DNA of 34,506 bases from a virus, in IMG/VR virus record IMGVR_UViG_3300025035_000001, one strand, 5' to 3'. Positions 10,578-34,506 of the stretch are shown here, one piece after another. A model generated the notes under the pieces. That model was not told the DNA's origin and made no database searches. It saw only the letters and a list, made by a program, of their open reading frames with translations. Each line of letters begins with the position of its first letter. Positions within the stretch are counted from its first letter, which is position 1. The position numbers and the translations under genes are program-made.

Positions 10578-11699
10578 ATGAGTGAATTTTTATTTCCGGA
10601 AAAAGTTCGTGTCATTAATGACCCTACGAGCTATCCAGTAACATTTAAAAATGCAGCAGGAGGAACAGTTGCAGCAGCAGCCGCTTTTGAAGCTGACATT
10701 CAATTTTTTGGTCAAGTAAAAACTCCTTTTTTAAGAAGAGCTACTTTGACTAGAGGTTTTTCTCCACAACCTGAAACATATAGCATTACCGCCGCAACAG
10801 CTACTGAGATTGCTTTAGCCGCTTCTATTCCTAACGGTACAAAAGCTGTGGTTGAAATCGAAGTGCGTACTACATCAAGAGCGATGGAATATGTACGTCC
10901 AGAGTATGTTTTTGGTGAAAATATTCGTTATTCAATTTCTATTGATGAGGCTGATACTCCGAATGTATTCTTATACAAATTATACAAAGCAATGACGTTA
11001 GCTTCTTATAGAGAAAGAGATTTTAAAATAGAAGCTACAGCAACTAATATTGATGATGTGGCAAGAACCATAGACAGTTTAACTATGGCGCTTACCGGGA
11101 GAGGTGCTTATGTACAGTCTTTTAAAGTGACTAACGAAGCTTCTGAAGTTTCTTCTGATGTTACCGTATTTGCACCAGCATTAGTAAAAAAAGGTTCTAA
11201 AGGTATTGGTTATGGTTTTGAATTAGAGTTCTTAGAAAAACTCCAATATAAAAATAACACTCCTTATTTCTTTGACGATGCTGAAAGATTCGATGAAAAA
11301 GCGTTATACACAATGATTTCTTTTGATACTGTAATTGGAAGACCTTCTCGTGAAGCAACTCCTTCGACTTATAGTGATTATAAACGTTTTGTTCTTTATA
11401 TTAAAGAAACAAATACGGCTTATATTGAAGATTTAGCCGATTTCTTTTTAACAACACCAGCTACTCGTTTTACGTCTTTAGATTCAAATGGATTAACCGT
11501 TGGATTTAACGATGCCGTATCTTTAACCAATACCAATGCTGCTTCTTCTGCAACTAATTTAGATTCTGACCACGGTATTCTTACCGCTCGTTATGGAACA
11601 CTTGCAGCAGTATCCTCTAAATATGTAGAGGCTCAAATGGTGGTTAATGATGATACCTTTGATAACTTCACATTACCTGGATTTAAGACTAACGCATAA
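10578..11699 (+). CDS. Putative auxiliary capsid (cement/decoration) protein
   Basis: 373 aa, Ala/Thr-rich beta protein with a GKGIGYG-like segment (KGSKGIGYG) near two-thirds of its length. It has its own leader and a strong terminator, implying high expression, and sits between ring genes as in crAss-like phages. Confidence 0.55.
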   Translation: MSEFLFPEKVRVINDPTSYPVTFKNAAGGTVAAAAAFEADIQFFGQVKTPFLRRATLTRGFSPQPETYSITAATATEIALAASIPNGTKAVVEIEVRTTSRAMEYVRPEYVFGENIRYSISIDEADTPNVFLYKLYKAMTLASYRERDFKIEATATNIDDVARTIDSLTMALTGRGAYVQSFKVTNEASEVSSDVTVFAPALVKKGSKGIGYGFELEFLEKLQYKNNTPYFFDDAERFDEKALYTMISFDTVIGRPSREATPSTYSDYKRFVLYIKETNTAYIEDLADFFLTTPATRFTSLDSNGLTVGFNDAVSLTNTNAASSATNLDSDHGILTARYGTLAAVSSKYVEAQMVVNDDTFDNFTLPGFKTNA

Positions 11700-11735
11700 T
11701 CTAATGCTGTTTTATACTCATTTTCATTTACAAAT

Positions 11736-11759
11736 ACCCCGGCATTGTCGGGGTTTTTT
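11736..11759 (+). terminator. Rho-independent terminator
   Basis: GC-rich stem ACCCCGGC-ATT-GTCGGGGT followed by TTTTT. Confidence 0.85.
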
Positions 11760-11793
11760 GTATATTTATTTTATATTAAAATTGTAATGAACA

Positions 11794-12480
11794 ATGCAAG
11801 AAGTAATTAGAGGTACATGGACTCTTCCAGGAATCACCTATGCGATTAAAAATAATCTTGAAGCAGGATTAAAAGGAACTGCTAATTTTCCTTTTTCAAT
11901 TGAACAATTAGAAGCCGAAGTGATTGCAGAAAGAAATGCAGTAGTAGAACAGTTGAAACAATCTAATCTTCTTGGTGCAAGTGAATTATTTCAAGAAATA
12001 AACTGTGTTTCTTTAGATTGTGAAGATTTTGGATTATGTTGTGAAACATCCACTAAACAACCAACACTTCATTTTAAAGTACCGGTATTTGTTATACAAA
12101 ACTACACCGGTTTAGCTACTCAAACAAAACCTTTTTATATATATGAAGTAGGTAATACCAATTATTTATATCAGGATTATAAATCAAGTTATACTTCTCG
12201 TAAACCATATGTAGTATATAGATTGTACAATGGTGAAATGCACGGATTTATTTTTAATCCCCCCACACCAAATCTTAAAAAAATATCAGTAAGAGCTATT
12301 TTTGAAAATCCTTTAGCTGTTAATGGTTTTAAATGTTGTAGTTATAATGTTGAAACAGATAGATTTCCTGCTCCTAATTTTGTAATTCAACAGATTATTG
12401 TGAATATCACAAATCGTTGGGCATCATGGTATTATAGATTTCAAGGTCAGAAACCTAATAGTCAAACTCCTCAAGTATAA
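11794..12480 (+). CDS. Tail ring/structural protein
   Basis: SIEQLEAEVIAER...LFQEINCVSLDC...KPYV...IFNPP...ISVRAIFENP resembles crAss ring proteins. Synteny agrees. Confidence 0.6.
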   Translation: MQEVIRGTWTLPGITYAIKNNLEAGLKGTANFPFSIEQLEAEVIAERNAVVEQLKQSNLLGASELFQEINCVSLDCEDFGLCCETSTKQPTLHFKVPVFVIQNYTGLATQTKPFYIYEVGNTNYLYQDYKSSYTSRKPYVVYRLYNGEMHGFIFNPPTPNLKKISVRAIFENPLAVNGFKCCSYNVETDRFPAPNFVIQQIIVNITNRWASWYYRFQGQKPNSQTPQV

Positions 12481-13223: not shown

Positions 13224-13654
13224 GTCGTTTTCAAAAACCTAAATCGGCTATAGCAATAGGTGATATAGCCTTAACTATTGATTTTGAGTTTATTAAAACA
13301 CATAGAAGAGTGATGAAAGCAAAAGATAAGCGCAATATTGCGGTTAAAGTCTTTACTCGTTTTTATGAAATGATGATAACTGATGTGATTGAGAATAATG
13401 TTGAATTTCAAGCACCTACACGTAAATTGATGTTATTTTATGTAGCTGAAGATTTACCTGCTAGGACTAAACGATTGAATTATCACGAACCTGCTATTTT
13501 TGAGAAAAAATTTAAACAACATGTAGTATGGATGACCTATTACGCAAATAAAAATATTCGACATCGTTTTGTTTCAGTAAATAAGACACTGTATAAAAGA
13601 CTTGCAGAATTAGGTGTAACACATAAATATTTAGAAAAAAGAAGATATGCTTAA
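13220..13654 (+). CDS. Basic protein, putative divergent IHF/HU-like DNA-binding protein
   Basis: K/R-rich. A helix (VKVFTRFYEMMITDVIENN) is followed by beta strands (VEFQAP). crAss-like phages carry IHF-like genes at this location. Confidence 0.45.
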   Translation: MSRFQKPKSAIAIGDIALTIDFEFIKTHRRVMKAKDKRNIAVKVFTRFYEMMITDVIENNVEFQAPTRKLMLFYVAEDLPARTKRLNYHEPAIFEKKFKQHVVWMTYYANKNIRHRFVSVNKTLYKRLAELGVTHKYLEKRRYA

Positions 13655-13934
13655 AAAGAAAAGAACTATTGATTACAAGCAACAACTGCTTGAAGAATTT
13701 TATCCAATGACGTGGAAAGAAATATCTAAGTCATTACAGCTTATTTGGAAAGGGGTTTCTTCTAAAGTAGATGAAGGATTTTTAGTACAGGTAAGGCGTT
13801 CTAAAGGAGGAGGTTTTCATTCTATTATTGGTTTTGCAAAGAATCGAGAAAAAATAGAAGAAATACAAAAACAGCAATCAGAATATATTAAAGGTATGCG
13901 TGAAGCGTATCATTCTATGAATAAATACAGATAA
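13647..13934 (+). CDS. Small basic protein, putative IHF/HU-like
   Basis: 95 aa with a helix-helix-beta pattern (QLLEEFYPMTWKEISKSLQLIWKGV...GFLVQV). Synteny agrees. Confidence 0.4.
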   Translation: MLKKKRTIDYKQQLLEEFYPMTWKEISKSLQLIWKGVSSKVDEGFLVQVRRSKGGGFHSIIGFAKNREKIEEIQKQQSEYIKGMREAYHSMNKYR

Positions 13935-13937
13935 TAT

Positions 13938-16900
13938 ATGAGCGGTACAACCAATAGTTTTGAAGGAGGTTTACATTTAGATTATCCTGATTATCAAACA
14001 CCTAAAAATGTATATACTTTTGCCAACAATGCTACTTTTTTAACACATGAAGGGAATGAATTAATTTTGCAAAATGAAAAAGGTACAGTATATCAAAGTA
14101 GTCTTAAAGAAGATTACATAGCGGTTGCAGTAGCCGATTATACAGGTATTGCTTATATTATATCAGCACAAGTAATTAATAATGAATTTACAGGAAGAGG
14201 TGAAATAGGTACATTTCCAAGTCCTGATTATGCTAATAAAGTAGATGTTGATTGCACAGCTCAAGGGTGTAATTATGAAACAACGCTTATTCCTGAATAC
14301 CAAGCTTTTCAAAATTACAGTGGTGATAACGGTAATCCGATTAATTCTTTAATTGAAGTGGGTTATGGAGAATTTACTTCTGATTTGTTTAATTTTCAAA
14401 AAGATAAACCTGTTGAAATAGTCGCAACACAAACAAGTTATGATGGATCGGTAAATATCATTTTTACAGATAATTTTAATAAACCTAAACTTATAAACAG
14501 TCGATTTACAGTAAGACCTAATAATAAAGTTACTATTGTAAATAGAGCTGGTTCTAACGATACTAATTTATACGCTGTAGATAATTTTAATAATACACTT
14601 AATCACATCTTTAGTTCAAATAAATTAGCTACGGTTACCTTTGATGGTCAATCTACAGGTGGTGATTTAGCTACTGGACAATATCGTTATTTCTTTCAAT
14701 ATCTTACCGTAGACGGTAACGTAACTAATGTATTTGCTGAATCTTTCAACATTCCAGTATTTTTTGGTAATTCGGTTGCTACCACTCGTGGAGGATTACC
14801 AAATGAAAACACAGACAAAAGTAACAAATTAACGATTCATAATATTGACCAAGCTTATTCAAGTATTAGAGTATATTTTCAATATTCCGCAGGAACAGTA
14901 GGTGCGGATGCACAACAAACCGTTTATAAAATAGAGGAAGAATATGACATAAAAGGAACAGAAGTCACAATTACCCATAGTGGTTTTGAAACAATTACCG
15001 CAGTAGAAAACGCAGAACTTTCTTTAGATTTTTCTTTAATCAACACTTATAGAACAGGTTGTGAAATAAAAAGTAGATTAGCGGTTGGAAATATTAAACT
15101 TCGTCAGTACGATGTAAACATATTATTTGATTTCGCTAAAAAGATTAAAGTATTTGAAACCGAAAAGAAAATGACAATTCCTGGTTTTGATACGGATAAA
15201 AATCATTCTAACATTTATTCAAATATTGCTTATGATGCTGTTCAACGAGACACTTTTGTTGGGGGTTACTATAACCCTCGCAACGTACACGATAATCTTG
15301 GCTATTGGGGTGGTGAAACCTATATGTTTGGAGTCACATTTATATTCGAAGATGGAGCGTATTCTCCTGTTATTCCTATTCGGGGTATCGACAATTTTAA
15401 CAATAACGCTGTTTATAACGATGCTAACCTTTTTATAGATGATGATTTTGATAAGACTACAGGTGAAAACATAAGAGGTGTTTATCGCTTTTCTCGAAGA
15501 ACCAAAAAAAATTATATTGTTACTTCAGCTTCTTCTTATGTTAATGTTTTATTAGCTGAATTTGAAATACCTCAATTACCACAAACTATTTTAGATTTAG
15601 GGGTTGTGGGTTATCGTTTTCATAGAAGTAGACGTAAGTTAGACTGTATAGGTCAAGGGGTATTAATTAATACTGTAATCATACCTACCGATGATGGCTT
15701 TGATTTTAGAGAACCTAAAGTTAATCCTAATTCTTCATTAGCCACTTATTACAAAGCAGGTTTTGATGAACCTATTGAAGGGTATACTGAAAACAATTCA
15801 AGATATATTCCAAGTTTTAACTATTTACTTGAAACCATTTCAAGAAAGAATAAAAGAGATAAAGACGATTCGACAGGACCGCATTCACCCTCTGTGGACA
15901 ATCAAGGTATAGAACCTGTTCAAATGTATGCGGGTGGGTACAATGGAGCAATTGAAAAATTTTGGTTTAATAAGAAGTTCGCCTTCCTTAGTCCCGACTT
16001 TATAGGTAATCCTGTTAATAACTCAAGACTTTTTAGTACTGATAGTTTTAGTTTTGAAAAACTAGGTGAATTTTATTCTATTTACGCTGTTCCGACGACT
16101 GTTCCTTTTAAAGTAGAAACCACTACCAAAGCACCTTGGGCAGAAAGAGATGTTAATCATTTAAGATATTTTTCTTTAATTAAACCAACCTCTTTTTTAC
16201 AAACACCTCTTAGTCCTTTTATTAAATGCAGTGCGGAATATGTAACAGGAGAGGTTACTTCTACTACTTCTCAAGGTTTTTCTTCAGCTACGGATATTTA
16301 CGCTAAGTTTAGGTATCAATTAGGTGAAGGTATTGTATTTGACGGAAAAACAAATTCTGCGGACACGGTTGATTATGGGTTGTTAAATTATATCTTTAAT
16401 GATTATGTTGGAATAACTACTGAAAACCCTTTTATTATTAATCCTAATTATCCGACTACGCTTCCTGTAAGCTCTACTTTTGTTTCTATTAATCAAACCA
16501 CTTACGATTTAGGAGCTACTACAGGAGCAGGTACTAAAGTAGATGGAGGTAGAGTAAATACTTTTAATTTCACTAACAATGTTACTACAGGAGATTACGC
16601 TTCCGTTTTAATTAATGTTTATAGAGGTTCAGGACCTAGAAATTTAGAACAACTTTCAGTACTTTATCAACCTGAAGGTGAAGCGTTTTTTCCGATTACT
16701 CAACCGTTATATGAAACAAACGCTCTTGCGAACGCTGTACAAGCTTCAGGAGTCAATGGAATCCTTCAAACGAAGCAAAACCTATCTAACAGTAAAGGTC
16801 GCTTAGAAGCCGCTAATGGTGATTGTTTTATTAATCTCACACATAGACGATTATTTTATTCGGGTCTGGATAGAAATGACCCGGGAATAGAAGTAGGTGT

Positions 16901-18471: not shown

Positions 18472-19248
18472 ATGTATAAAAAATATAAAAAAAGCAGAGC
18501 TAAATTCATTAAACGTTCTCCCGGTGGTTCTATGGGTGGTTCTGATGCTATATCTGCGGGTTTAAGTTTTCTTGGTGATATGATTCCTGAATCGGATGTT
18601 TTAGAAAAAACAGGTAAAAGTTCAGCGATTAGTGATACCGTTAATGCCGCAGCGGTTCAAGGTTTAAATACGATTTTACCCGGTTCAGGTACGGCTTTGA
18701 ATATGTTAACAAAGACCACAGGTAATCTTAGAAAAACAAATTGTGTACCTGACCCTTCTTCACCAACAGGTGAAAAATGTTTTGAAGATGAAAAAGGAGC
18801 AGGGGAGGTAGTCGCAAACATTTTTGACCCTGGTAAGACCGCAGGAGATATGGTAGATGGTTTTACAACACTTTTTAAAGACCCTAAACAAGGAGCTAAA
18901 AAACTAGTCGATACTTTTACTTTTGGAATAACAAATTTTGATAAGTCCGAGGAAGATGCGTATGCGGAAGCTTTAAAAGAAGATAATCAAAGGAAAAAAA
19001 ACGAAAGATTTTCTAAAGTAAATACTCAAGCAAATAAAGACAAAATACTAGGGCAACAGTTAGGTGCTGCTCAGTTTCAAAGAAACACTCAAACGTATGC
19101 TAAGAAAGGAGGTTCTTTATTTAATCGATTAAAAAAAGGTGGAACGGTTAAAGACCGTTGTTATTATAAATGTAAAGCATCGTATAAAGTGTTTCCTTCT
19201 GCGTATGCTTCAGGTTGTATTGCAAAATGTAGAAAAAATAAATCATAA
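18472..19248 (+). CDS. Putative cargo/ejection protein fused to a small C-terminal basic 'PSAYAS' module
   Basis: Follows the muzzle gene. It has Gly/Ala-rich amphipathic segments. The C-terminal KDRCYYKCKASYKVFPSAYASGCIAKCRK resembles a small module common in aquatic phages and is separated from the rest by two KKGG motifs. Confidence 0.55.
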   Translation: MYKKYKKSRAKFIKRSPGGSMGGSDAISAGLSFLGDMIPESDVLEKTGKSSAISDTVNAAAVQGLNTILPGSGTALNMLTKTTGNLRKTNCVPDPSSPTGEKCFEDEKGAGEVVANIFDPGKTAGDMVDGFTTLFKDPKQGAKKLVDTFTFGITNFDKSEEDAYAEALKEDNQRKKNERFSKVNTQANKDKILGQQLGAAQFQRNTQTYAKKGGSLFNRLKKGGTVKDRCYYKCKASYKVFPSAYASGCIAKCRKNKS

Positions 19249-20486
19249 TGGTTAGAAAAACAGAAAAAGGTCTAGCTTTAAAACGTTGGTTTAAAGAAAA
19301 TTGGAAAGATGAGAAAGGTAATCCTTGTGGTTCTGATAAAAATAAAGATATTAAGAAATGTAGACCTACTAAGAAAGTTTCTAAAGACACGCCTGAAACT
19401 TGGAGTTCCATAAATAAACGAGGTGTGAAAGATGAAATAGTTAAACAAAAGAAAAACACAGGTATGGGAAATAGAACAGACTCAAGTAAAAATATTAAAA
19501 ATAAACAAGGTGGTAAAATGAATAAATCATTACAAGACCTATATCTTCCTAAACGTAAATTACAAAATAGTGGTATAATACAACCTGTAATTTCTCCAGC
19601 TTTACGTAAAGCAATGGAAGAATCTAAAACTAAATCCAAAGTTGCTGGACATAAACTTCCAATATATGAAGAACATTTAAATAGTCCTAATTATAAAGCA
19701 GCTACTAAAAACGCTAAAGAAATACAACAAGGTATTGAAAAAGGTGAAGTAGAAGCTATTCAACAAAAAGATGGAACATACCGATATGTAAGTACAGGTA
19801 AAGCAATTCCCGACGATACTCACGAAATGATTGCTACTTTAGGTGTTGGTGCAGTGGGTAAATTAGCAGCTAAAGAGGCAGGGAAAAAAATCATACCTCG
19901 TTTGGTAGATGCTGGAAAAGAAGGTTTAGAAGCATTAAGTAAACATTATGCTCCTAGAGATTTTGGACAAGGAGTAGCGTTAGGTGCAGATGTTATTAAC
20001 GATGCAACTAAAGGAAAATTTGATTTAGAAAAAGCTGTAATGTCAGCATTACGTATGGCACAAGCAGGTGTACCTGTATCAGGAGCTTTTGATAATAAAA
20101 TCGCTCAAGGTTTAGCGGATGCTACTTTAGGAAACAATAATCCTATTATTAAATTACTTTTACAATTACCTCCTAAATCTTTAGAAAAACTACCTGCTAT
20201 TAATCGATTTCTAAGAGGTAGTGGTATCACAAGTCAAATGAGTGGAGAAGGACAAGGTTCAAGATTAGATAGACCGATAAAAGAATTTGACCCATACACT
20301 CCAAAAAGAAAGTCTGATTCAAATAAATCTTTTATAGAAAAAATGCGTGAAAGTGCTGCGGAGCTACAAGAAAGCTTTAAAACAAATAGGGAAAACGCTA
20401 GAAAACGTTTAAATCTTAAAAAAAATGGTGGAACAATTATTCGTCAAAGATTAAGGCAACCTTTAAAAAATATTTATGAAATTTGA
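19248..20486 (+). CDS. Basic multi-module protein: N-terminal DUF5872-like 'LKRWFKENW' module plus an Ala/Gly-rich helical region (putative internal virion protein)
   Basis: GLALKRWFKENWKDEKGNPCG...KCRPTKKVSKDTPETW. KQGG lies at the module boundary and KNGG near the C-terminus. Confidence 0.55.
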   Translation: MVRKTEKGLALKRWFKENWKDEKGNPCGSDKNKDIKKCRPTKKVSKDTPETWSSINKRGVKDEIVKQKKNTGMGNRTDSSKNIKNKQGGKMNKSLQDLYLPKRKLQNSGIIQPVISPALRKAMEESKTKSKVAGHKLPIYEEHLNSPNYKAATKNAKEIQQGIEKGEVEAIQQKDGTYRYVSTGKAIPDDTHEMIATLGVGAVGKLAAKEAGKKIIPRLVDAGKEGLEALSKHYAPRDFGQGVALGADVINDATKGKFDLEKAVMSALRMAQAGVPVSGAFDNKIAQGLADATLGNNNPIIKLLLQLPPKSLEKLPAINRFLRGSGITSQMSGEGQGSRLDRPIKEFDPYTPKRKSDSNKSFIEKMRESAAELQESFKTNRENARKRLNLKKNGGTIIRQRLRQPLKNIYEI

Positions 20487-21252
20487 AAAGTTTGATATTG
20501 AAGGAACAATGATTCCTTTTTTCGGTATTTCTGATTCGTCTATGGAAGTCAAATTTAATAGAGTGGCTAGAATCGCTTCTCGATTTAATATTTGGAAAGA
20601 ACAGATGCAAAACTACGTATTACAGAATAACTCATCACCTACTTCTCAAGAATATAATCTTTCTGTTGCTTTTTTAATCATTATGTCGACAGGAATTAGA
20701 GTAGGTAATGAGAGTTCCGCAGAAGGTTTTTATTCAGACTATAAAGAAAAAGGTAAAACGGTTTTCGCACATACGTATGGTTTAACAACTCTCTTACCTG
20801 AACACGTTAGTGTTAAAAACGAAATCGTGTATTTTAATTTTACAGGAAAGAAACACGTTCAAAATACTTTTGAGTTAAGTTCTGATTTAAGTAAATTAGT
20901 AATTCCGGTTATTGAAAGTGGTTATTCGACTGTATTTAATATGGAAGAACCAGAACTAACTCGATTTGTGAAGCAACATACTTCTAAACATTTAAGTACG
21001 AAAGACTTTAGAACCTTTAGAGCTAATGTGTATGCTTTTGAATTTGGAAGCACCCAACCTAAATATATGTCTAAATCTGAAAGAAAAGATAGAATTAAAG
21101 ATACTGTTGAAAAAGTATCCCAACAATTAAACAATACTCCCGGTGTGGTTAAATCTTCTTATGTAGATAAACGATTGTTAGATTATCTTTTTCCTGAAGA
21201 GTTAATACCAAAAAAGAAACATGGGGGATTACTTAAACTTTATAAATTATGA
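20476..21252 (+). CDS. Type IB DNA topoisomerase, catalytic domain only (bacterial/poxvirus-like)
   Basis: Catalytic pentad present: R75 (GIRVGN), K125 (FTGKK), R179 (KDFRT), N220 (LNNTP) and Y229 (SYVD), plus the YGLTTL motif. The N-Y spacing of 9 equals vaccinia H265-Y274. Confidence 0.9.
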   Translation: MKFEKFDIEGTMIPFFGISDSSMEVKFNRVARIASRFNIWKEQMQNYVLQNNSSPTSQEYNLSVAFLIIMSTGIRVGNESSAEGFYSDYKEKGKTVFAHTYGLTTLLPEHVSVKNEIVYFNFTGKKHVQNTFELSSDLSKLVIPVIESGYSTVFNMEEPELTRFVKQHTSKHLSTKDFRTFRANVYAFEFGSTQPKYMSKSERKDRIKDTVEKVSQQLNNTPGVVKSSYVDKRLLDYLFPEELIPKKKHGGLLKLYKL

Positions 21253-21539
21253 TGTCATTATTGGAATTATACGGTTTAAATCAACTTAAAAAAGGTGGAA
21301 CAGTTGATAAAAAATCAATACCTTGTAACAAACCTAAACGTTTAGTAGGACACCCGACAAAAAAATTTATTGTAAAAGGTTGCGAGAATGGAAACGAGTC
21401 TATAGTTAGATTTGGTGACGCAAATATGAAGATAAAAAAAAATAATCCTAGAAGAAGAAAGTCATTTAGAGCTAGACACAATTGCAGTAATCCGGGTTCT
21501 AAATTAAAAGCTCGTTATTGGTCTTGCAAAAACTGGTAA
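21249..21539 (+). CDS. Small very basic protein of the 'VRFGD...RRKSFRARHNC...ARYWSC' family (putative DNA-binding internal head protein)
   Basis: This motif is widespread in aquatic phages, from memory. N-terminal LKKGGTV. Confidence 0.65.
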   Translation: MMSLLELYGLNQLKKGGTVDKKSIPCNKPKRLVGHPTKKFIVKGCENGNESIVRFGDANMKIKKNNPRRRKSFRARHNCSNPGSKLKARYWSCKNW

Positions 21540-21615
21540 TTATTTTATTTTAAATTAACCAAAAGGTCTTATATTTATAAGAAGTTTTATTTCATATCTT
21601 TTTAAACATAACATT

Positions 21616-21879
21616 ATGATTGCAAGAGCTATAGTAATAACTAATTATGATGAAATCGTTAATGCTGATAAAGAAGCACAACGTTTAGGATTAGACAAAA
21701 TGGGAATAAAACCCATTGAAGAAATCAGTGAAATCGGTTTTAATCTTGCAGATGTTTCAAGGTATTTAGCAATTCCTGCTACTGGCAAAATTGTAGTAGT
21801 ATTTAAAGATAGAACAGAAGAAGAATTTGAATTAGATGAACAGTTGTTAACATTACTTAGAAGTAAATTTAAAATATGA
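21616..21879 (+). CDS. Hypothetical protein
   Basis: 87 aa ORF with an AT-rich leader. ATGA overlap with the next gene. Confidence 0.65.
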   Translation: MIARAIVITNYDEIVNADKEAQRLGLDKMGIKPIEEISEIGFNLADVSRYLAIPATGKIVVVFKDRTEEEFELDEQLLTLLRSKFKI

Positions 21880-22919
21880 AACTATACGCAAAATATTTAA
21901 AACGACAAGACGGTGGAGATACCAAACCTGCTACTGTTTATGATACGTTTCCTAAAAAAATTAAAAAAGCTCTTGAAAAATCAGATAATATAAGTAAAAG
22001 TGTTACTGATATTCCTAATGGTTTTAGAACCACAGTATCTACGGCTAGTGGTAAACCTGGAAAAATTCATGAGCAAAGTATTGACCCAAACTCTTTAAAA
22101 GGTTCAGGTAAATACATAGGTGGTTGTACTACTGAGATAATGCGACCCTTAATACAAGCTTCTAAATCAATAGAATTACAAAATAAATTAGTTGCTCAAG
22201 GTATTGCTAAAATTGAAGACTATGGGAGTAGAAAGGTTATTACAAGTGTAAAGAATCCTAATTGTAAAATACCTTTAGAAAAATTTCAAGAACCCGGTTC
22301 AAGAGAAAGTGCTTTATTTACCCAAGAAATGAAGTTCGCAGGTAAAAAAGATATTGAAATGCCTATAGATATACCTAAAGGTAAATTAAGAAGAATACCT
22401 ATGCCTAAAGGAGAAGATAAGATACCAATACCGCAAGGTGAGTCAATGGAAAAAGAGGTTAACATTAATGTTTGGTTTAATCTAAAAGTACCGCACATGA
22501 CTAAAGGTGTTAAAGATTTAGGTAAAAGACAAGTACCGGTTACATTCTTAGTTCAGGTAGATAGAAAAGCAAATGATTTTAATAATTTGACAAAAAAAGA
22601 TGTGAGAATAAAAGTGGCATCAGTAGGAGCGATTGAAGCAGTAGGTACTAATAATGCTGCCGCTGCTTATCAAAGTGGTGGAGCATCAATAGATGTTGGT
22701 GATTTTCCCCTTGGTACTGGTGCAGTTACCGAAGCTGAAATAAGAAGTAAAATGAACATTATAGGACCTTTTATATTAGCTAAAATAAACGACGGAACGA
22801 TTAAAGCACGTGTTGGAAACGTAAAAGGGAACATTCCTTCTTTTCAAGATAGATTAAACCAAATAAGAAACTCTCGTAAAAGAGGTGGGACATTATTAAC
22901 CAAATATTTAAGTCGATGA
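21876..22919 (+). CDS. Hypothetical basic protein with xxGG motifs at both termini (putative cargo)
   Basis: 347 aa. KRQDGGD at the N-terminus, RKRGGTLL at the C-terminus, and an internal short Pro-rich repeat (IDIPKG/IPMPKG/IPIPQG). Confidence 0.6.
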   Translation: MKLYAKYLKRQDGGDTKPATVYDTFPKKIKKALEKSDNISKSVTDIPNGFRTTVSTASGKPGKIHEQSIDPNSLKGSGKYIGGCTTEIMRPLIQASKSIELQNKLVAQGIAKIEDYGSRKVITSVKNPNCKIPLEKFQEPGSRESALFTQEMKFAGKKDIEMPIDIPKGKLRRIPMPKGEDKIPIPQGESMEKEVNINVWFNLKVPHMTKGVKDLGKRQVPVTFLVQVDRKANDFNNLTKKDVRIKVASVGAIEAVGTNNAAAAYQSGGASIDVGDFPLGTGAVTEAEIRSKMNIIGPFILAKINDGTIKARVGNVKGNIPSFQDRLNQIRNSRKRGGTLLTKYLSR

Positions 22920-23311
22920 ACATATATGGATTTTCAGCACAAAGGAATAGAAATACCTCAAAAGGAAGAACTTTAAAAGACGGTGGTATTATTGCTGGAG
23001 GTGTAGCACACGCTGAAAATAATAATATTGGCGATAAAGGTATTCCTGTGGTATCGATTGAATCTTATAACACCAACAATGGAAAATATATTAAGTCTGA
23101 TAAACAAGTAGAAGTAGAATCTGAAGAGATTGTTTTCAATGAGGAAACGTCTTTGAAGATTAATAAGTTAGTAGAAGAATATAATACGTGTAAATGCGAA
23201 GGTAAATTAAGATTATTAGGTCAAGTTATACTTGAAGCTACTCGTAATCTTGTCGATGAAACATGTAGAACCAGTTGCAAATTTGAATCTAAATTACAAA
23301 AAATAAAATGA
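22916..23311 (+). CDS. Conserved crAss-like virion/cargo-associated protein ('KGIPVV...EVESEEIVF' family)
   Basis: GVAHAENNNIGDKGIPVV...QVEVESEEIVF...LLGQVILE. N-terminal LKDGGII. Confidence 0.55.
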   Translation: MNIYGFSAQRNRNTSKGRTLKDGGIIAGGVAHAENNNIGDKGIPVVSIESYNTNNGKYIKSDKQVEVESEEIVFNEETSLKINKLVEEYNTCKCEGKLRLLGQVILEATRNLVDETCRTSCKFESKLQKIK

Positions 23312-24183
23312 ACAATTTAAGAATTAAAAACCTTCATAAACGCTTGTTAAAAGCGGGTGGTAAAATCGTAAAAGAAGATAGCTATTTATTTAAAAATAAA
23401 AGAGCTGACGGTGGTGAGGTTAAAACACCTCCAAGAAAGGCATTATACGCTTTAGCTAACAAATTAGCGGACCAAAAAGTAGCTAGAAATGGCGGTACAC
23501 GAAATGATTATTTTATGGAAGCGATTAAGCACATTAAGGCTAATCCTGAAAGGTATCGAGAAGAACTGAGTAAATATGTTGATGAAACACCTATTTCAGT
23601 AAATAATGATATAGAAGATCCTGAAATTGTTTCAGGTATGACTCGTGGTGATTATTTAAACGCTGACGACAACACCCGAAAAAACATGGAGGAGTATGTT
23701 AACTATGGGCAGTATGGTGAAAACAATCAAGGTGCTGTAGATAAGAAAATAAATATTAAAAAACGTCAGATAATTACTGCGGCTTATAATAGAGCTATTC
23801 GAGAAGCTACTATCGCTAATAATAATAAACCGTTAAGTACTAAACAAATGCAAGAGATTTATAAAAAATTAATGGAAAGTCAAGCTGTACCTTCTTTTAA
23901 TATGGGAGGTATTATGGGTGCTGTAGGAAACGTTATGCAGAATCCTAATACGATGAATATGATGGGAGATATGATGTCTCAACAAGCGGAACGTAGAAAT
24001 CAAGCGGTAATGGCTTTAGGTGGGCAATTACGAATGAGGAGATTAGGTGGTTCTATCATTGGAGAAACAATGTTTAAAATCGCTGATAAAAATGCGGATT
24101 GGATTTATAATAATATGCAAGATTTAATCGGTGACGCGGTTTATAAAAACAATTTAGAAAGATTGTCAAGATTATCTCTGTAA
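23308..24183 (+). CDS. Hypothetical protein with multiple xxGG motifs and a Met-rich segment (putative cargo polyprotein)
   Basis: Contains LKAGGKI, RADGGEV, ARNGGT, FNMGGIM, MALGGQL and RRLGGSI. Confidence 0.6.
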   Translation: MNNLRIKNLHKRLLKAGGKIVKEDSYLFKNKRADGGEVKTPPRKALYALANKLADQKVARNGGTRNDYFMEAIKHIKANPERYREELSKYVDETPISVNNDIEDPEIVSGMTRGDYLNADDNTRKNMEEYVNYGQYGENNQGAVDKKINIKKRQIITAAYNRAIREATIANNNKPLSTKQMQEIYKKLMESQAVPSFNMGGIMGAVGNVMQNPNTMNMMGDMMSQQAERRNQAVMALGGQLRMRRLGGSIIGETMFKIADKNADWIYNNMQDLIGDAVYKNNLERLSRLSL

Positions 24184-24184
24184 T

Positions 24185-24679
24185 ATGTTTTACATTGGCG
24201 ATTCTGAAATACAAGGAAAAGGTGTTTTTATAGACCAAGATGTACCAAAAGGAATATGTCTTGGTCTTGCTCACACTTTAGAAGGTAATAAATTAACTCG
24301 TATTACTAAATTGGGTAAATTTCATAATCATTCAGTTTTTCCTAATTGTAAATCATTTAAAATAGGCAATAACCGTTATTTATTTAGTCTTAGAGATTTA
24401 GTAAAAGGGGAAGAAATAACCGTTGATTATAGAAAACAACCCGAATTAGAACAACCTAAAGAAAATTGGGATATGGCAAGATTATTATTACTCGACCATA
24501 ACGGTCAACCTCAAATGAAACTTGGAGGTAGAGAAATTGTATTTTCAAGAGTTTCAACAAAAAAGATTTTAGATTTAGCTGAAAAAGCAAGTGATGGAGA
24601 TAATCGAGATATTTTAGCTTTAGGTAAGTTCGTTTATCAAGAAAGAATGAAACAAAAGAAAAGAGACAAAGAAATTTAA
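24185..24679 (+). CDS. Minimal SET-domain protein-lysine methyltransferase fused to a C-terminal 'EIVF' helical domain
   Basis: SET motifs: SEIQGKGVF (GxG), FHNHSVFPNC (NHS) and RDLVKGEEITVDY. No pre- or post-SET Cys clusters. Confidence 0.85.
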   Translation: MFYIGDSEIQGKGVFIDQDVPKGICLGLAHTLEGNKLTRITKLGKFHNHSVFPNCKSFKIGNNRYLFSLRDLVKGEEITVDYRKQPELEQPKENWDMARLLLLDHNGQPQMKLGGREIVFSRVSTKKILDLAEKASDGDNRDILALGKFVYQERMKQKKRDKEI

Positions 24680-24725
24680 TTTTTTGTATATTTAATTTAT
24701 ACAGTCACCTATAAAAACAACGATA

Positions 24726-25037
24726 ATGATTACGTTTAATAATAGAAACACAAATAAAGTTGTAATCCCAGCTAGAGTGCTAGGATTACGTCAAGAAGGA
24801 GGGGAGTTGATAGAATCAGGAGAACCTGCGGCTGCGGAAGCTCAAGACCCTATGATGGACATCTTAAATATGGCAATGCAAGCAGTGGAAGAGCAAGATC
24901 CTGAAACGGCTATGCAAGTTTGCGTAATGCTAGTAGAAATAGCAGGTGGAGGTGAAGAAGCTTCTATGGAAGAAGAATCAATGGAAGAAATGCCTACAGA
25001 TGAAGAAATGGGTTACGGTGGAATGATGGATTACTAG
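24726..25037 (+). CDS. Small acidic Met-rich protein (crAss-like conserved 'QDP...AMQVC' family), flanked by xxGG motifs
   Basis: RQEGGEL...QDPMMDILNMAMQAVEEQDPETAMQVC...MGYGGMM. Confidence 0.6.
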   Translation: MITFNNRNTNKVVIPARVLGLRQEGGELIESGEPAAAEAQDPMMDILNMAMQAVEEQDPETAMQVCVMLVEIAGGGEEASMEEESMEEMPTDEEMGYGGMMDY

Positions 25038-31209: not shown

Positions 31210-32553
31210 ATGTCTCAAATTAGAAAAAAGTTTATTGCCACAGATGCAATAGACGAATCAAAAATATTATTAAGTAATGATGGCGCATTAAGAGCAAGAA
31301 ACAACGCTGATAGTGCGGATGTTGAAATACTTAAATTAACAACTGCTGATGTTATTCAGTTCTTAAGTGTTCCTCAATCACCATCTCCTGCGGTCAACGC
31401 TAACGATTTGGTAATTCTTTCACAAATTCAATCACTGTTAGAGGGTTTAAAACCTAAAGAAGCTGTAAAAATCGCTACGACTGAAAATATTACACTTTCA
31501 GGTTTACAGACTATTGACGGTATTTTAACCGTAGCTGGAGATAGAGTTTTAGTCAAAAACCAAACAACGCAATCTCAAAACGGTATTTATACTGCGGCAA
31601 CAGGTGCTTGGGTGAGAGCTGATGATTTTGATTCTCTTACTCCTACAGATGAAATTAACGGTGCTTTAGTAGCCGTACAAGAAGGTACTGCAAACGCAGG
31701 TAAGATTCTTGTTCAAACGGGTAATGTTACCACTTTAGAAACGGATGCTATTATATTTGTATTTTTTAATTCTTCTACTACTTTAACAGGTGGAGATGGT
31801 ATCACGCTTACTTCAGGTACAGACATTGATATAGATTTAGCGACTAATTCAGGATTAGAATTAACAGCTAGTGATGGCACGGGGCAGTTAAGAATCAAAG
31901 GTCTTGCCGATTACTCTGCTACAGCATTACCTGACCAAGTGGCTATTGGTTATAATGCTACAGGTGAACTTATTTTAGACACTACTACAATCGCTTTAAC
32001 AGGAGGTGATGGTATTGATATAACTTCTGGTACAGTATCTATAGATTTAGTCGCTAATCGAGCTTTACAGTCTACTGGTGGACAACTTGATTTATTAATT
32101 GATGGTGTTTCATTAACTCAGTCAGCAACAGGTATTACGGTAGCCGTAGATGGGATTAAAGAAGCTGAAATTGATACTACCGTCGTAGATGCTGAGACAT
32201 TCTTAATTTCTACCGTTTATGACTCAAGCATTGCAACAGGTAATGTTACCGTAGGTGATACTGTTCAACAAGCAATTGAAAAAATAGAATCTAAAGTAGA
32301 TAATGTTGTAGGTGGTCAAATTCAACAAACTTTCACTCTTACAGCGGGTGATATTGTAAACGGATTTGTAACTCTTTCAGGAACACCTTTAAACGCAATT
32401 GCTACATTAATGGTACAAGGAGGTGGTGCACAATTACAAGGAATTGATTATACAATAGCTACTAACATATTAACTTTTGCAGGTGGTCTATCATCAGGAA
32501 CTGAAGCACTTGAATTAGGTAATGTGATTCAAGTTACTTATTTGACAGCATAA
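31210..32553 (+). CDS. Fibre/head-decoration protein
   Basis: KEAVKIATTENITLSGLQTIDG...GDRVLVKNQT...QNGIY...WVRADD domain, followed by T(A/G)GDGI-type shaft repeats. Confidence 0.7.
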   Translation: MSQIRKKFIATDAIDESKILLSNDGALRARNNADSADVEILKLTTADVIQFLSVPQSPSPAVNANDLVILSQIQSLLEGLKPKEAVKIATTENITLSGLQTIDGILTVAGDRVLVKNQTTQSQNGIYTAATGAWVRADDFDSLTPTDEINGALVAVQEGTANAGKILVQTGNVTTLETDAIIFVFFNSSTTLTGGDGITLTSGTDIDIDLATNSGLELTASDGTGQLRIKGLADYSATALPDQVAIGYNATGELILDTTTIALTGGDGIDITSGTVSIDLVANRALQSTGGQLDLLIDGVSLTQSATGITVAVDGIKEAEIDTTVVDAETFLISTVYDSSIATGNVTVGDTVQQAIEKIESKVDNVVGGQIQQTFTLTAGDIVNGFVTLSGTPLNAIATLMVQGGGAQLQGIDYTIATNILTFAGGLSSGTEALELGNVIQVTYLTA

Positions 32554-32562
32554 ACCGTATAG

Positions 32563-32600
32563 ATAGAGTCTGAGTAAATAACTTAGACTCTATTATATTT
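32563..32600 (+). terminator. Stem-loop, probable terminator or processing hairpin between paralogous fibre genes
   Basis: ATAGAGTCTGAGT-AAATA-ACTTAGACTCTAT, a 13-bp stem with one G-U pair, followed by TATATTT. Confidence 0.65.
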
Positions 32601-32620
32601 AACAAACTTAAAAACGAACT

Positions 32621-34506
32621 ATGTCAACAATCATTAAAAAGTACATTGGTAACGACCAAGTAGATGGGCAAAAGATATTATTGCTTAATGACCAAGAGTT
32701 TAGAGCCAAGTTGCAATTAGGTGGAACAACTGATTTGTTTAAGTTAGATACATCCAATGAATTACAATTTATTGAGATGATTAATCTTCCTACTATTGCA
32801 ACGCAATCAACTCATGCGGTTCGTTTTGACCAACTACAAGCTGCTTTAGAAGGACTTTCCGCAAAAGAAGCTGCTAGAGTCGCTACTACAAATAATATTA
32901 CCCTTTCAGGGCTTCAAACAATAGATGGAATCGTACTCGAAGATGGAGACCGAGTGTTAGTTAAAAATCAAACTACAGCTTCGCAAAACGGAATTTATGT
33001 AGCTTCCGCAGGAGTATGGTCAAGAAGTGCAGATGCTAATACTGAAGCTGAAATAACAAATGCTCACATCGCTATTCAAGAAGGAACGGATAATGCGGGA
33101 AAGTTTTACGTTCAAACAGGTCAAATAACTACATTAGATGTTGACCCTATAGTTTTCACATTTTTTAATTCTTCTTCTAATCTTGTAGGTGGTAACGGTA
33201 TTGACATTAGTGCCAATACTGTTACGGTAGGTTTAAAAACCGCAGGAGGACTTAAATTTGATTTAGGTGAACTTACATTAGAACCTACCGATATTGCAGG
33301 ATTTGGTTTAGAAGATGATGGTTCAGATAACCTCAGAGTCGCTTCAACAATAGCTGGAAACGGTCTTTCGGGTGGTTCAGGAACAGCTTTAACAGTAGTT
33401 TCGGATAATATAGGTTCAGCCAATATTGCTACTGCCATTTCAGTAACTACTGACGGTGTTGGTGTTAAAATAGACGGTGTTACTATTACAGAAAACGTAT
33501 CAGGACAATTACAAGTTGAATCTATTCCTTCTTCGGCGTTAGATGCTACTATTGCAGGAAAAGGTGTTTCTTTAAACGGAACGACAAATGCGATTGATGT
33601 TAATGTTGACGATGTAACCATTGAAATTGTAACAGATAATCTACAACTTAAAGACTTAGGTATTACAGGAGCTAAAATAGCTTCTGCAACTATTTCTGCT
33701 GATAAATTTACAGCTACTACTTTTGGCGCAGGACTTGTTCAAAATGTAAACGCAATTGATGTAAATGTTGATGGAACAACAATTCAGATTGTAGGTGATA
33801 CTCTTAGTGTAGTACCTAATTCTGTAACACCTGAATTACACGCAGACTCTCACGTTACCGGTGGTTCTGATATTATAGATGGTGATATTGTTGATATTAC
33901 TTACGTACCTTCTAATTATACAAGAAATATCACACCTTCTGAAGTAACACTAGTTACTGAATTAACCTCTCATTTAGCAGGTATAGACAATGCTTTAGCA
34001 GATGTTCAATCTTCTAATTTAGTAACGGAATATTTTACTTTATCCGCAGGAAATATTACAGATGGTTATGTTGACTTATCAAATAAAGCTGCTGGATTAG
34101 TAGAAGTAGTTGTTGAAGGTCTTGCACAACAGTTTATATCACAAGAGTTTACGTTAACCAACCCTTTAAACGGTAGAGTTACTTGGTCAGCAACCATAGC
34201 TAGTTTAATTACTGCTGGAGATAATATAGAGATACGGTATTTAACACAAGTGGGTATTGTAGGTTTAGCCGATGCTTCTATACAAATTAATACAACTGCC
34301 CCGTTAGCAGGAGGAGGAGATTTAACGAGTAATAGAACGTTATCTATTGATTCAACTGGAGCGAGTTCAGGAGATGTATTAAGCGCAGACGGTGTTGGTG
34401 GAGTTTCTTTTACAACACCTTCAAGTAGTTTAAACGATGTTACTGAAGGAACAGGTATCGCAGTAAATAAAACTATTCCTACCAATCCAGTAATTGCTTT
34501 AAACAA
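32621..34506 (+). CDS. Fibre/head-decoration protein, paralogue of 31210..32553, 3'-truncated (missing from the ORF track)
   Basis: ATG at 32621 gives MSTIIKKYIGNDQVDGQKILLLND...KEAARVATTNNITLSGLQTIDG...GDRVLVKNQTTASQNGIY. The frame is open to the window end. Confidence 0.85.
   Translation, partial: MSTIIKKYIGNDQVDGQKILLLNDQEFRAKLQLGGTTDLFKLDTSNELQFIEMINLPTIATQSTHAVRFDQLQAALEGLSAKEAARVATTNNITLSGLQTIDGIVLEDGDRVLVKNQTTASQNGIYVASAGVWSRSADANTEAEITNAHIAIQEGTDNAGKFYVQTGQITTLDVDPIVFTFFNSSSNLVGGNGIDISANTVTVGLKTAGGLKFDLGELTLEPTDIAGFGLEDDGSDNLRVASTIAGNGLSGGSGTALTVVSDNIGSANIATAISVTTDGVGVKIDGVTITENVSGQLQVESIPSSALDATIAGKGVSLNGTTNAIDVNVDDVTIEIVTDNLQLKDLGITGAKIASATISADKFTATTFGAGLVQNVNAIDVNVDGTTIQIVGDTLSVVPNSVTPELHADSHVTGGSDIIDGDIVDITYVPSNYTRNITPSEVTLVTELTSHLAGIDNALADVQSSNLVTEYFTLSAGNITDGYVDLSNKAAGLVEVVVEGLAQQFISQEFTLTNPLNGRVTWSATIASLITAGDNIEIRYLTQVGIVGLADASIQINTTAPLAGGGDLTSNRTLSIDSTGASSGDVLSADGVGGVSFTTPSSSLNDVTEGTGIAVNKTIPTNPVIALN

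Follow-up and report, generated by a model that had tools for sequence, protein, structure and literature searches.

The locus described here raises the question of why a crAss-like phage should encode a type IB topoisomerase (TopIB) that lacks the N-terminal DNA-binding part of its class, next to the genes of its own particle, and what such an enzyme would do there. Eukaryotes, poxviruses, and some bacteria are the textbook sources of type IB topoisomerases, and crassviruses are the most abundant gut phages. The gene lies at positions 20476–21252 of a 34,506-nucleotide stretch of viral DNA (IMG/VR record IMGVR_UViG_3300025035_000001), which was analysed over its full length and is referred to below as the window. 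An earlier reading of the letters and translations, made without database searches and referred to as the sequence-only reading, had recognised a headless TopIB in the virion module and proposed that it is packaged into the particle. The results presented below establish the enzyme class, the headless state, and, by synteny, the position of the gene at the crassvirus cargo site, and indicate that the protein is probably carried in the virion.

Identity of the enzyme and its catalytic residues

The open reading frame (ORF) at 20476–21252 is open throughout, lies on the plus strand, and encodes a protein of 258 amino acids (aa). Pfam assigned residues 26–227 to the family Topoisom_I (PF01028) with an E-value (E) of 1.1e-17 and a score of 64.6 bits, the cut-off being 23.7. 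A phmmer search of the PDB recovered the TopIB of Deinococcus radiodurans (2f4q) at E 9e-9 and the vaccinia/variola enzymes at E 1e-4 and 7e-4.

In the alignment with 2f4q, residues K125, R179, N220, and Y229 of the window TopIB correspond to K174, R239, N280, and Y289, and R75 lies within the invariant motif TGIR(I/V)GNE. In an alignment of 83 relatives with 29–64% identity, R75, K125, K176, R179, and Y229 are invariant, and N220 is found in at least 90% of the sequences. Residue K176 is the equivalent of vaccinia K220. The window protein thus has the whole catalytic Arg-Lys-Arg-His/Asn set and the Tyr nucleophile (R130, K167, R223, H265, and Y274 in vaccinia), as well as the K220 equivalent, and the earlier statement that R75, K125, R179, N220, and Y229 are intact agrees with both alignments. 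Topoisom_I was assigned by Pfam to all 83 relatives.

The product of this gene is almost certainly a type IB topoisomerase, as the sequence-only reading had it, and both the Pfam match and the structural matches described below agree with that identification. Judged by the conservation of its active site, the enzyme is likely to be catalytically active.

A catalytic domain without an N-terminal domain

An AlphaFold2 (AF2) model of the window TopIB built on the 83-sequence alignment had a mean predicted local distance difference test score (pLDDT) of 94 and a predicted template modelling score (pTM) of 0.89. In a Foldseek search of the PDB with this model, the first 22 rows were all TopIB, with E-values from 3.5e-10 to 1.2e-5, while tyrosine recombinases appeared from 1.5e-2 and protelomerases from 0.25. 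The VIA alignment with D. radiodurans TopIB (3m4a) gave a Z score of 21.9 and a root-mean-square deviation of 2.3 Å over 206 residues, placing model residues 20–242 on residues 80–302 of the bacterial enzyme. Residues 24–245 aligned with residues 82–291 of the variola enzyme (2h7f) at Z 20.3.

Tyrosine recombinases and protelomerases share the catalytic fold, and the gene could in principle belong to one of them and have been misread as a topoisomerase; XerH and Cre do align with the model at Z 12–14. However, the Z scores of tyrosine recombinases (11–14 overall) lie below those of TopIB chains (17–22), and the Foldseek E-values separate the groups in the same way. Recombinases typically have His at the position matching K176, where TopIB has Lys (PMC2666729), and the window protein has Lys there and no core-binding domain. 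Together with the assignment of every relative to Topoisom_I, these data lead us to reject a recombinase or protelomerase identity, the probability of which is practically negligible; the best structural matches are TopIBs.

The start of the model coincides with that of the catalytic domain in the reference enzymes (their residues 80–82), and about 25 residues precede the KFNRV motif (K26–V30), as had been noted. The only structure ahead of the catalytic domain is a short beta-hairpin, in which I8 and F15, followed by G17, are conserved in the near clade, and which lies outside the VIA alignments, these starting at residues 17–25. The N-domain families PF21338 and PF09266 were found neither in the window TopIB (Pfam, E <= 0.1) nor in any of the 83 relatives (E <= 0.01). 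Since the model starts at reference residue 80–82 and no N-domain family occurs among the relatives, the headless state is confirmed as real and as a trait that the window gene shares with its entire phage family; the proposed loss of the N-terminal DNA-clamp domain is thereby borne out.

The missing domain bears on whether the protein works as an enzyme at all. Catalytic fragments of Pseudomonas aeruginosa TopIB (residues 99–333) and of the vaccinia enzyme that lack the N-domain relax DNA, less efficiently and with weaker site binding (PMC2666729). One might propose that the window protein is a catalytically dead remnant serving as a DNA-binding filler or scaffold in an array of cargo proteins, as these model enzymes bind less tightly and cleave more slowly once the clamp domain is removed (PMC2666729) and many of the proteins encoded around it are simply basic, with isoelectric points (pI) of 9.3–10.5. 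This is nevertheless very improbable, because the truncated vaccinia and P. aeruginosa proteins are still active (PMC2666729), and because conservation of the catalytic residues and K176 over the 83 relatives, at identities as low as 29%, indicates selection on catalysis.

Position of the gene in the window

The window is crAss-like phage DNA of about 32% G+C, with all genes on the plus strand (Table 1). The location of the TopIB gene in the virion module, which the sequence-only reading had asserted, is borne out by the genes for ring protein 2 and the muzzle protein upstream, and by matches to PHROGs of the categories virion structural protein, head decoration, and tail fiber downstream. Two genes separate TopIB from the muzzle gene. 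In Bacteroides phage crAss001, the muzzle gene gp44 is followed by gp45 and gp46, the two cargo proteins that mass spectrometry identified in virions and that are partially visible in cryo-electron microscopy (cryo-EM), and the RNA polymerase proteins are encoded after them (PMC10172136). By synteny, the window TopIB occupies the crassvirus cargo position, and the two proteins encoded between it and the muzzle gene are positional counterparts of gp45 and gp46.

Table 1. Coordinates of the TopIB gene, its parts, and the neighbouring features in the window (tag, the Gly-Gly junction tag described in the next section).
Feature	Position	Strand	Evidence or remark
Crassvirus tail ring protein 2	11794..12480	+	Pfam CrAss_Ring_2, E 1.3e-10
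Crassvirus muzzle protein, 1510 aa	13938..18470	+	crAss_MUZ, E 1.2e-45; phrog_15100, virion structural protein
Two basic tag-bearing proteins (258 and 412 aa) between muzzle and TopIB	18472..20486	+	Tags at residues 18, 213, 223 (258 aa) and 88, 394 (412 aa)
Headless type IB topoisomerase gene	20476..21252	+	11-nt start overlap with upstream gene; stop overlaps next start (ATGA)
Short conserved beta-hairpin, residues 4–15	20485..20520	+	AF2 strands E4–8 and E11–15
TopIB catalytic domain, residues 20–242	20533..21201	+	VIA alignment to 3m4a; conserved columns
R75 codon	20698–20700	+	Codon position checked
K125 codon	20848–20850	+	Codon position checked
K176 codon	21001–21003	+	Codon position checked
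R179 codon	21010–21012	+	Codon position checked
N220 codon	21133–21135	+	Codon position checked
Y229 (nucleophile) codon	21160–21162	+	Codon position checked
C-terminal basic-Gly-Gly-hydrophobic junction tag, residues 246–258, KKKHGGLLKLYKL	21211..21249	+	Tail pLDDT 66–72; no predicted secondary structure
96-aa basic Cys/Trp module, DUF5754-like	21249..21539	+	phrog_7595; N-terminal tag ending LKKGG
Five more tag-bearing proteins, including SET-domain protein at 24185–24679	21876..25037	+	Tag sites; Pfam SET, E 1.1e-7
Virion structural/tail-fibre-like proteins, closing the bracket round the tagged block	31210..34504	+	PHROG, E 1e-24 to 2e-32

Between 11754 and 25037, a terminator scan detected no plus-strand site ending in a T-run. 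The sole strong intrinsic-terminator-like hairpin of the region lies at 11736–11754 (eight pairs, six of them G-C, followed by a T-run), just after a 373-aa gene at 10578–11699 and ahead of the ring protein 2 gene; its location suggests that 10578–11699 encodes a highly expressed structural protein. A sigma-70 promoter scan of the window gave hits at chance level, the consensus used being one that does not apply to Bacteroidota-type promoters.

Among deposited phages, the muzzle protein of the window had just two matches, both to faecal phage records without annotation and at 30% identity, which indicates that the window phage has no cultured close relative. The Pfam families of crAss cargo (e.g., crAss_CARG1) matched neither the proteins of the block after the muzzle gene nor the fused proteins of the relatives described below.

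The N-terminus of the 412-aa protein, in the region 19144–19460 that spans the gene junction at 19246–19250 (TAATG), matches positions 49–112 of the 116 in DUF5872 (E 2.9e-11), and the gene before it ends in a Cys-rich module (...FPSAYASGCIAKCRK) matching other PHROGs. This may be a small domain split across the overlapping genes for the 258- and 412-aa proteins, or two modules that are usually fused elsewhere.

The Gly-Gly junction tag

The window TopIB ends, as described in the sequence-only reading, in the tag KKKHGGLLKLYKL, of the form KKKHGG-hydrophobic, and in the AF2 model the tail has no secondary structure from about residue 240. A tag site was defined as a basic residue at most four positions before GG and a hydrophobic residue at most three positions after it. 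The ten proteins encoded at 18472–25037 have 14 such sites in 2147 aa, versus 9 in the other 8953 aa of the window (Fisher p 1.4e-5), and 4.05 ± 2.06 sites were obtained when the block proteins were shuffled. Of the 14 sites, all but two are found no more than 50 residues from the N- or C-terminus. The verified cargo protein gp45 of crAss001 contains 21 GG sites, many of them of the type aromatic-x-x-GG.

The tag also occurs among relatives of the enzyme. It precedes the hairpin and/or follows the last helix in 21 of the 30 closest TopIB relatives (at least 44% identity) and in none of the 53 more distant ones, the N-side form being typically aromatic-K-x-GG-K-L and the C-side form KK-x-x-GG-hydrophobic. 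In a maximum-likelihood tree obtained by a quick search, for which only support values of the Shimodaira–Hasegawa-like approximate likelihood ratio test (SH-aLRT) were calculated, all 22 tagged TopIBs fall into one subtree of 34–35 rows, and none of the 48 other relatives is tagged.

Two individual sites of this type in the window are of note. The clearest one outside the block is RRSKGGGF in a 95-aa protein encoded at 13647–13934, just upstream of the muzzle gene. Within the block, the SET-domain protein has the tag QMKLGG after the SET core and may represent a second enzymatic cargo cassette.

Relatives of the TopIB and its occurrence as a cassette

A profile search over 1.84 billion cluster representatives (clusters at 50% identity) yielded at least 79 clusters at E <= 1e-30, most with proteins of 220–300 residues that begin directly at the catalytic domain. 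Among the eight best matches are proteins of 764, 935, 1000, and 1044 residues, in which TopIB occupies residues 4–252, 123–400, 73–359, and 544–828, respectively. Pfam confirmed two of these four long fusions on their loci, and found a C-terminal DUF5754 as well in the protein of 1044 residues; the loci of TopIB fusions are designated L002 and L003. Each junction between TopIB and a fused module is marked by a tag (P0007, P0009, P0121–P0124).

The gene order of the window is repeated in locus L004, with ring protein 2, muzzle, two proteins, a small Cys module, TopIB, and a DUF5754-type protein, and in L005 and L006, TopIB lies just upstream of a muzzle gene. A distant untagged clade with 36–40% identity, comprising Bacteroides phage BS162P1 and many gut contigs of 85–90 kb, encodes the enzyme in the midst of small genes, with large genes downstream and no recognisable cargo block around it. 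The simplest interpretation is a single recruitment of a headless phage TopIB into the array of tag-delimited proteins in a crAss-like lineage.

The impression that TopIB is uncommon in tailed phages proved accurate, since only one of 50,697 deposited phage records matched. A pattern scan of IMG/VR with the single sequence found no close TopIB relatives, whereas the alignment-based scan did find relatives; a scan of metagenome contigs returned only distant TopIB loci with at most 43% identity.

Pfam searches of the large neighbours in L002 and L003 were uninformative except for two matches in L002, where a patatin-like phospholipase (E 1.8e-11) and a Peptidase_M15_3 cell-wall hydrolase (E 6e-18) are encoded at 13309–14650, right after the TopIB fusion and in the tagged block. 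The tag of this lineage is GG-S/T-L-I-P-K-F/H-Q, and its genes start with MLIPK and end with GGSLIPKK. In L003, directly after the gene for the 1044-aa fusion, a 250-aa ORF at 11476–12228 contains LAGLIDADG-like motifs, read by eye, and looks like a putative homing endonuclease gene inserted in the block.

Fusions to portal, MuF, and Acb1 in other phages

In phages of other lineages, TopIB was found joined to portal and MuF domains. In P0208, a Phage_portal_3 domain (E 3.5e-115) is fused to a two-domain TopIB, and in P0236 and P0245, Phage_Mu_F is joined to TopIB. Fusion to portal or MuF is an accepted signature of enzymes that are packaged and delivered by phages; the paper describing such effectors (Iyer et al. 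2017, PMC5512222) makes no mention of TopIB. These fusions suggest that capsid delivery of TopIB arose repeatedly, and the window phage would have taken a third way, using a smaller enzyme. The N-domain PF21338 is present in nine of nine long fused TopIBs of other lineages. Two proteins of a different kind, P0222 and P0206, join a two-domain TopIB to the enzyme Acb1 (E 3e-36 and 2e-34), which acts against the cyclic oligonucleotide-based antiphage signalling system (CBASS). In P0245, Hint/intein matches (weak, mostly below the Pfam cut-offs) and matches to a DUF559/Vsr-type endonuclease lie between MuF and TopIB.

The neighbouring basic protein

The sequence-only reading had suggested that a small basic protein encoded nearby replaces the missing N-terminal domain in trans. 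The product of the gene at 21249–21539 matches phrog_7595 (E 5.5e-16), and the corresponding module in L003 matches DUF5754 (E 6.6e-10). Its relatives, with 34–63% identity, come from Roseobacter phage SIO1, CRP phages, pelagiphages, and others, and none of them matched the TopIB query. The AF2 model (pLDDT 81) shows the tag helix followed by a hairpin and two helices; a Foldseek search of the PDB gave no match (best E 0.6), and no TopIB chain was among the top matches listed. Because the family occurs widely beyond phages matching TopIB and shows no fold match to the TopIB N-domain, the 96-aa protein appears not to be a dedicated head of the enzyme, and this part of the earlier proposal is not supported.

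A looser functional link between the two, e.g., through DNA binding, is possible. The DUF5754-like module adjoins TopIB in the window and in L004, and is fused downstream of it in P0022, P0123, and P0124. In marine metagenome proteins, the core of about 80 residues shares 55–70% identity with that of the window protein, which marks the product of 21249–21539 as a strongly constrained small phage protein.

Proposed role and its alternatives

In the course of events that we propose, the TopIB gene would be transcribed late, in a single transcription unit that includes the tail, muzzle, and cargo genes, and the enzyme would be packed into the virion along with the other tagged proteins, its tag being a docking handle, a joint, or a cutting site. 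It would then be ejected together with the cargo and the virion RNA polymerase. Tyr229 would nick one strand via a 3'-phosphotyrosyl intermediate, allowing the DNA to swivel without ATP, and this swivel would relieve torsional stress when the polymerase transcribes the genome, or pulls it in, with the far end still in the capsid. There is a precedent in vaccinia virus, in which TopIB (H6R) is the product of a late gene and a known virion enzyme, and the particle also carries the viral RNA polymerase (PMC11980589, PMC1540416).

That the window TopIB is virion cargo appears probable, if by no great measure. The chain as a whole, from late synthesis and packing to ejection and a swivel on the incoming genome during transcription by the virion RNA polymerase, may be considered evenly balanced. 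A broader picture, in which a single-domain TopIB would be injected with that polymerase as an exchangeable, tag-delimited cassette beside small basic modules of DNA-binding type and a SET methyltransferase, forming a poxvirus-like 'transcription-ready core' that arose independently in a tailed phage, with the tag as a sorting or processing code, falls somewhat short of even. The swivel for early transcription or genome entry, taken as the enzyme's role, is a tentative suggestion.

The virion-packaged relaxase of the sequence-only reading receives genuine though circumstantial support: the cargo position, the tag shared with the neighbours and with gp45, the cassette fusions, and the portal and MuF fusions all point to delivery. 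Because this support comes from context, packaging itself is something that we infer. Several observations weigh against it. The synteny comprises five near-clade genomic contexts; BLASTP of the 258- and 412-aa upstream proteins against crAss001 gp45 (gp46 being left out) gave no significant match (E >= 0.3); no protease was found in the window; 12 members of the tagged subtree, including the two closest relatives of the window TopIB, have no tag; and BS162P1, the only cultured phage with a TopIB relative, belongs to the untagged clade.

The last two of these observations are also what one would expect if the enzyme acted late inside the cell without being packaged, in late replication, recombination, concatemer processing, or genome packaging, and stood in the late structural operon by chance. 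The distant untagged phage TopIBs lie outside a muzzle and cargo block, so the ancestral role need not involve the virion. Such an unpackaged enzyme, however, leaves unexplained the in-frame fusion to tag-delimited modules in the four proteins of 764–1044 aa, the confinement of the tag to the block beside the muzzle gene, and the portal and MuF fusions in unrelated phages. We regard it as unlikely, though it is the strongest of the alternatives.

An injected enzyme could alternatively be aimed at the host chromosome, relaxing or nicking it so that negative supercoiling and host transcription collapse while the phage polymerase carries on. The cargo context is the same in both cases, and the block resembles an effector kit, with a SET-domain methyltransferase in the window and a patatin-like lipase and an M15 peptidase in the block of a relative. 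In addition, TopIB is fused elsewhere to the counter-defence enzyme Acb1, and a headless enzyme is expected to be less site-selective (PMC2666729). On the other hand, a few dozen injected, weakly binding molecules may not affect a whole chromosome, and the poxvirus precedent points to the viral template. A host target is therefore improbable, and we prefer a swivel acting on the incoming phage genome.

Novelty and significance

The enzyme class itself is already known, and relatives are labelled DNA topoisomerase IB by the Joint Genome Institute (JGI) and GenBank. Literature searches on phage or crassvirus TopIB, including TopIB as cargo, found nothing relevant. What is new is the natural single-domain TopIB as a large phage family, its use as a cassette in tag-delimited multi-module proteins, and its placement at the cargo position of crAss-like phages.

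The clamp domain had hitherto been removed only in the laboratory; an enzyme that naturally lacks it, and is conserved in this form, provides a minimal model for how a catalytic domain alone finds and holds DNA. The tag-bounded cassette can also serve as an enzymatically assayable reporter for the role of the Gly-Gly junction tag of crassvirus cargo. If the enzyme is carried in the virion, crassviruses would deliver an RNA polymerase together with a swivel, in parallel to poxvirus cores, and the transcription or entry of a genome with one end still in the capsid would gain a testable handle.

Comparison with known systems

The sole deposited phage record with a relative of the window TopIB is BS162P1 (OP172706.1), whose top1E product (WAX08783.1, 254 aa, 39% identity) is annotated as DNA topoisomerase 1B and is likewise headless. 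It differs in belonging to the untagged clade and in being encoded among small genes, with no muzzle neighbour. The best match in both sequence and structure is to the bacterial TopIBs of D. radiodurans (2f4q/3m4a) and P. aeruginosa (PAT), which have the same R-K-R-N set, Tyr nucleophile, and Asn at the fourth position. However, the bacterial enzymes carry an N-terminal DNA-binding domain of about 80–98 aa, where the window TopIB has just a 12-residue hairpin, and the identity is about 24%.

With respect to gene position, the closest counterpart is the cargo pair C1/C2 (gp45 and gp46) of crAss001, whose genes lie directly downstream of the muzzle gene, like the window block, and of which gp45 is rich in x-x-GG. 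Unlike the window, crAss001 has no TopIB; its gp45 and gp46 have been seen in virions by mass spectrometry and cryo-EM, and no homology was found between gp45 and the window block in the comparison, which left out gp46. The portal- and MuF-fused effectors and the polyvalent proteins of phages (PMC5512222) follow the same logic of placing an enzyme on a carrier inside the capsid. The TopIBs fused to portal or MuF keep PF21338 and a covalent carrier, whereas the window TopIB is headless and free-standing, or, in its relatives, part of tag-delimited arrays.

The poxvirus TopIBs (vaccinia H6R and variola; 2h7f, 3igc, 1a41) share the fold and are small viral enzymes, encoded by a late gene and carried in the virion, and they provide the functional model for the interpretation of the window TopIB as cargo. 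They differ in having two domains, the first a beta-sheet DNA-binding domain (residues 1–80 in vaccinia), in recognising CCCTT specifically via the N-domain, and in having His at the fourth catalytic position; moreover, their packaging has been shown experimentally, while that of the window TopIB is deduced from context. The closest equivalents in protein extent are vaccinia Topo(81-314) and P. aeruginosa PATCAT (99-333), both of which relax DNA (PMC2666729). These two are laboratory truncations with reduced affinity and rate, whereas the single-domain form described here is the conserved natural state.

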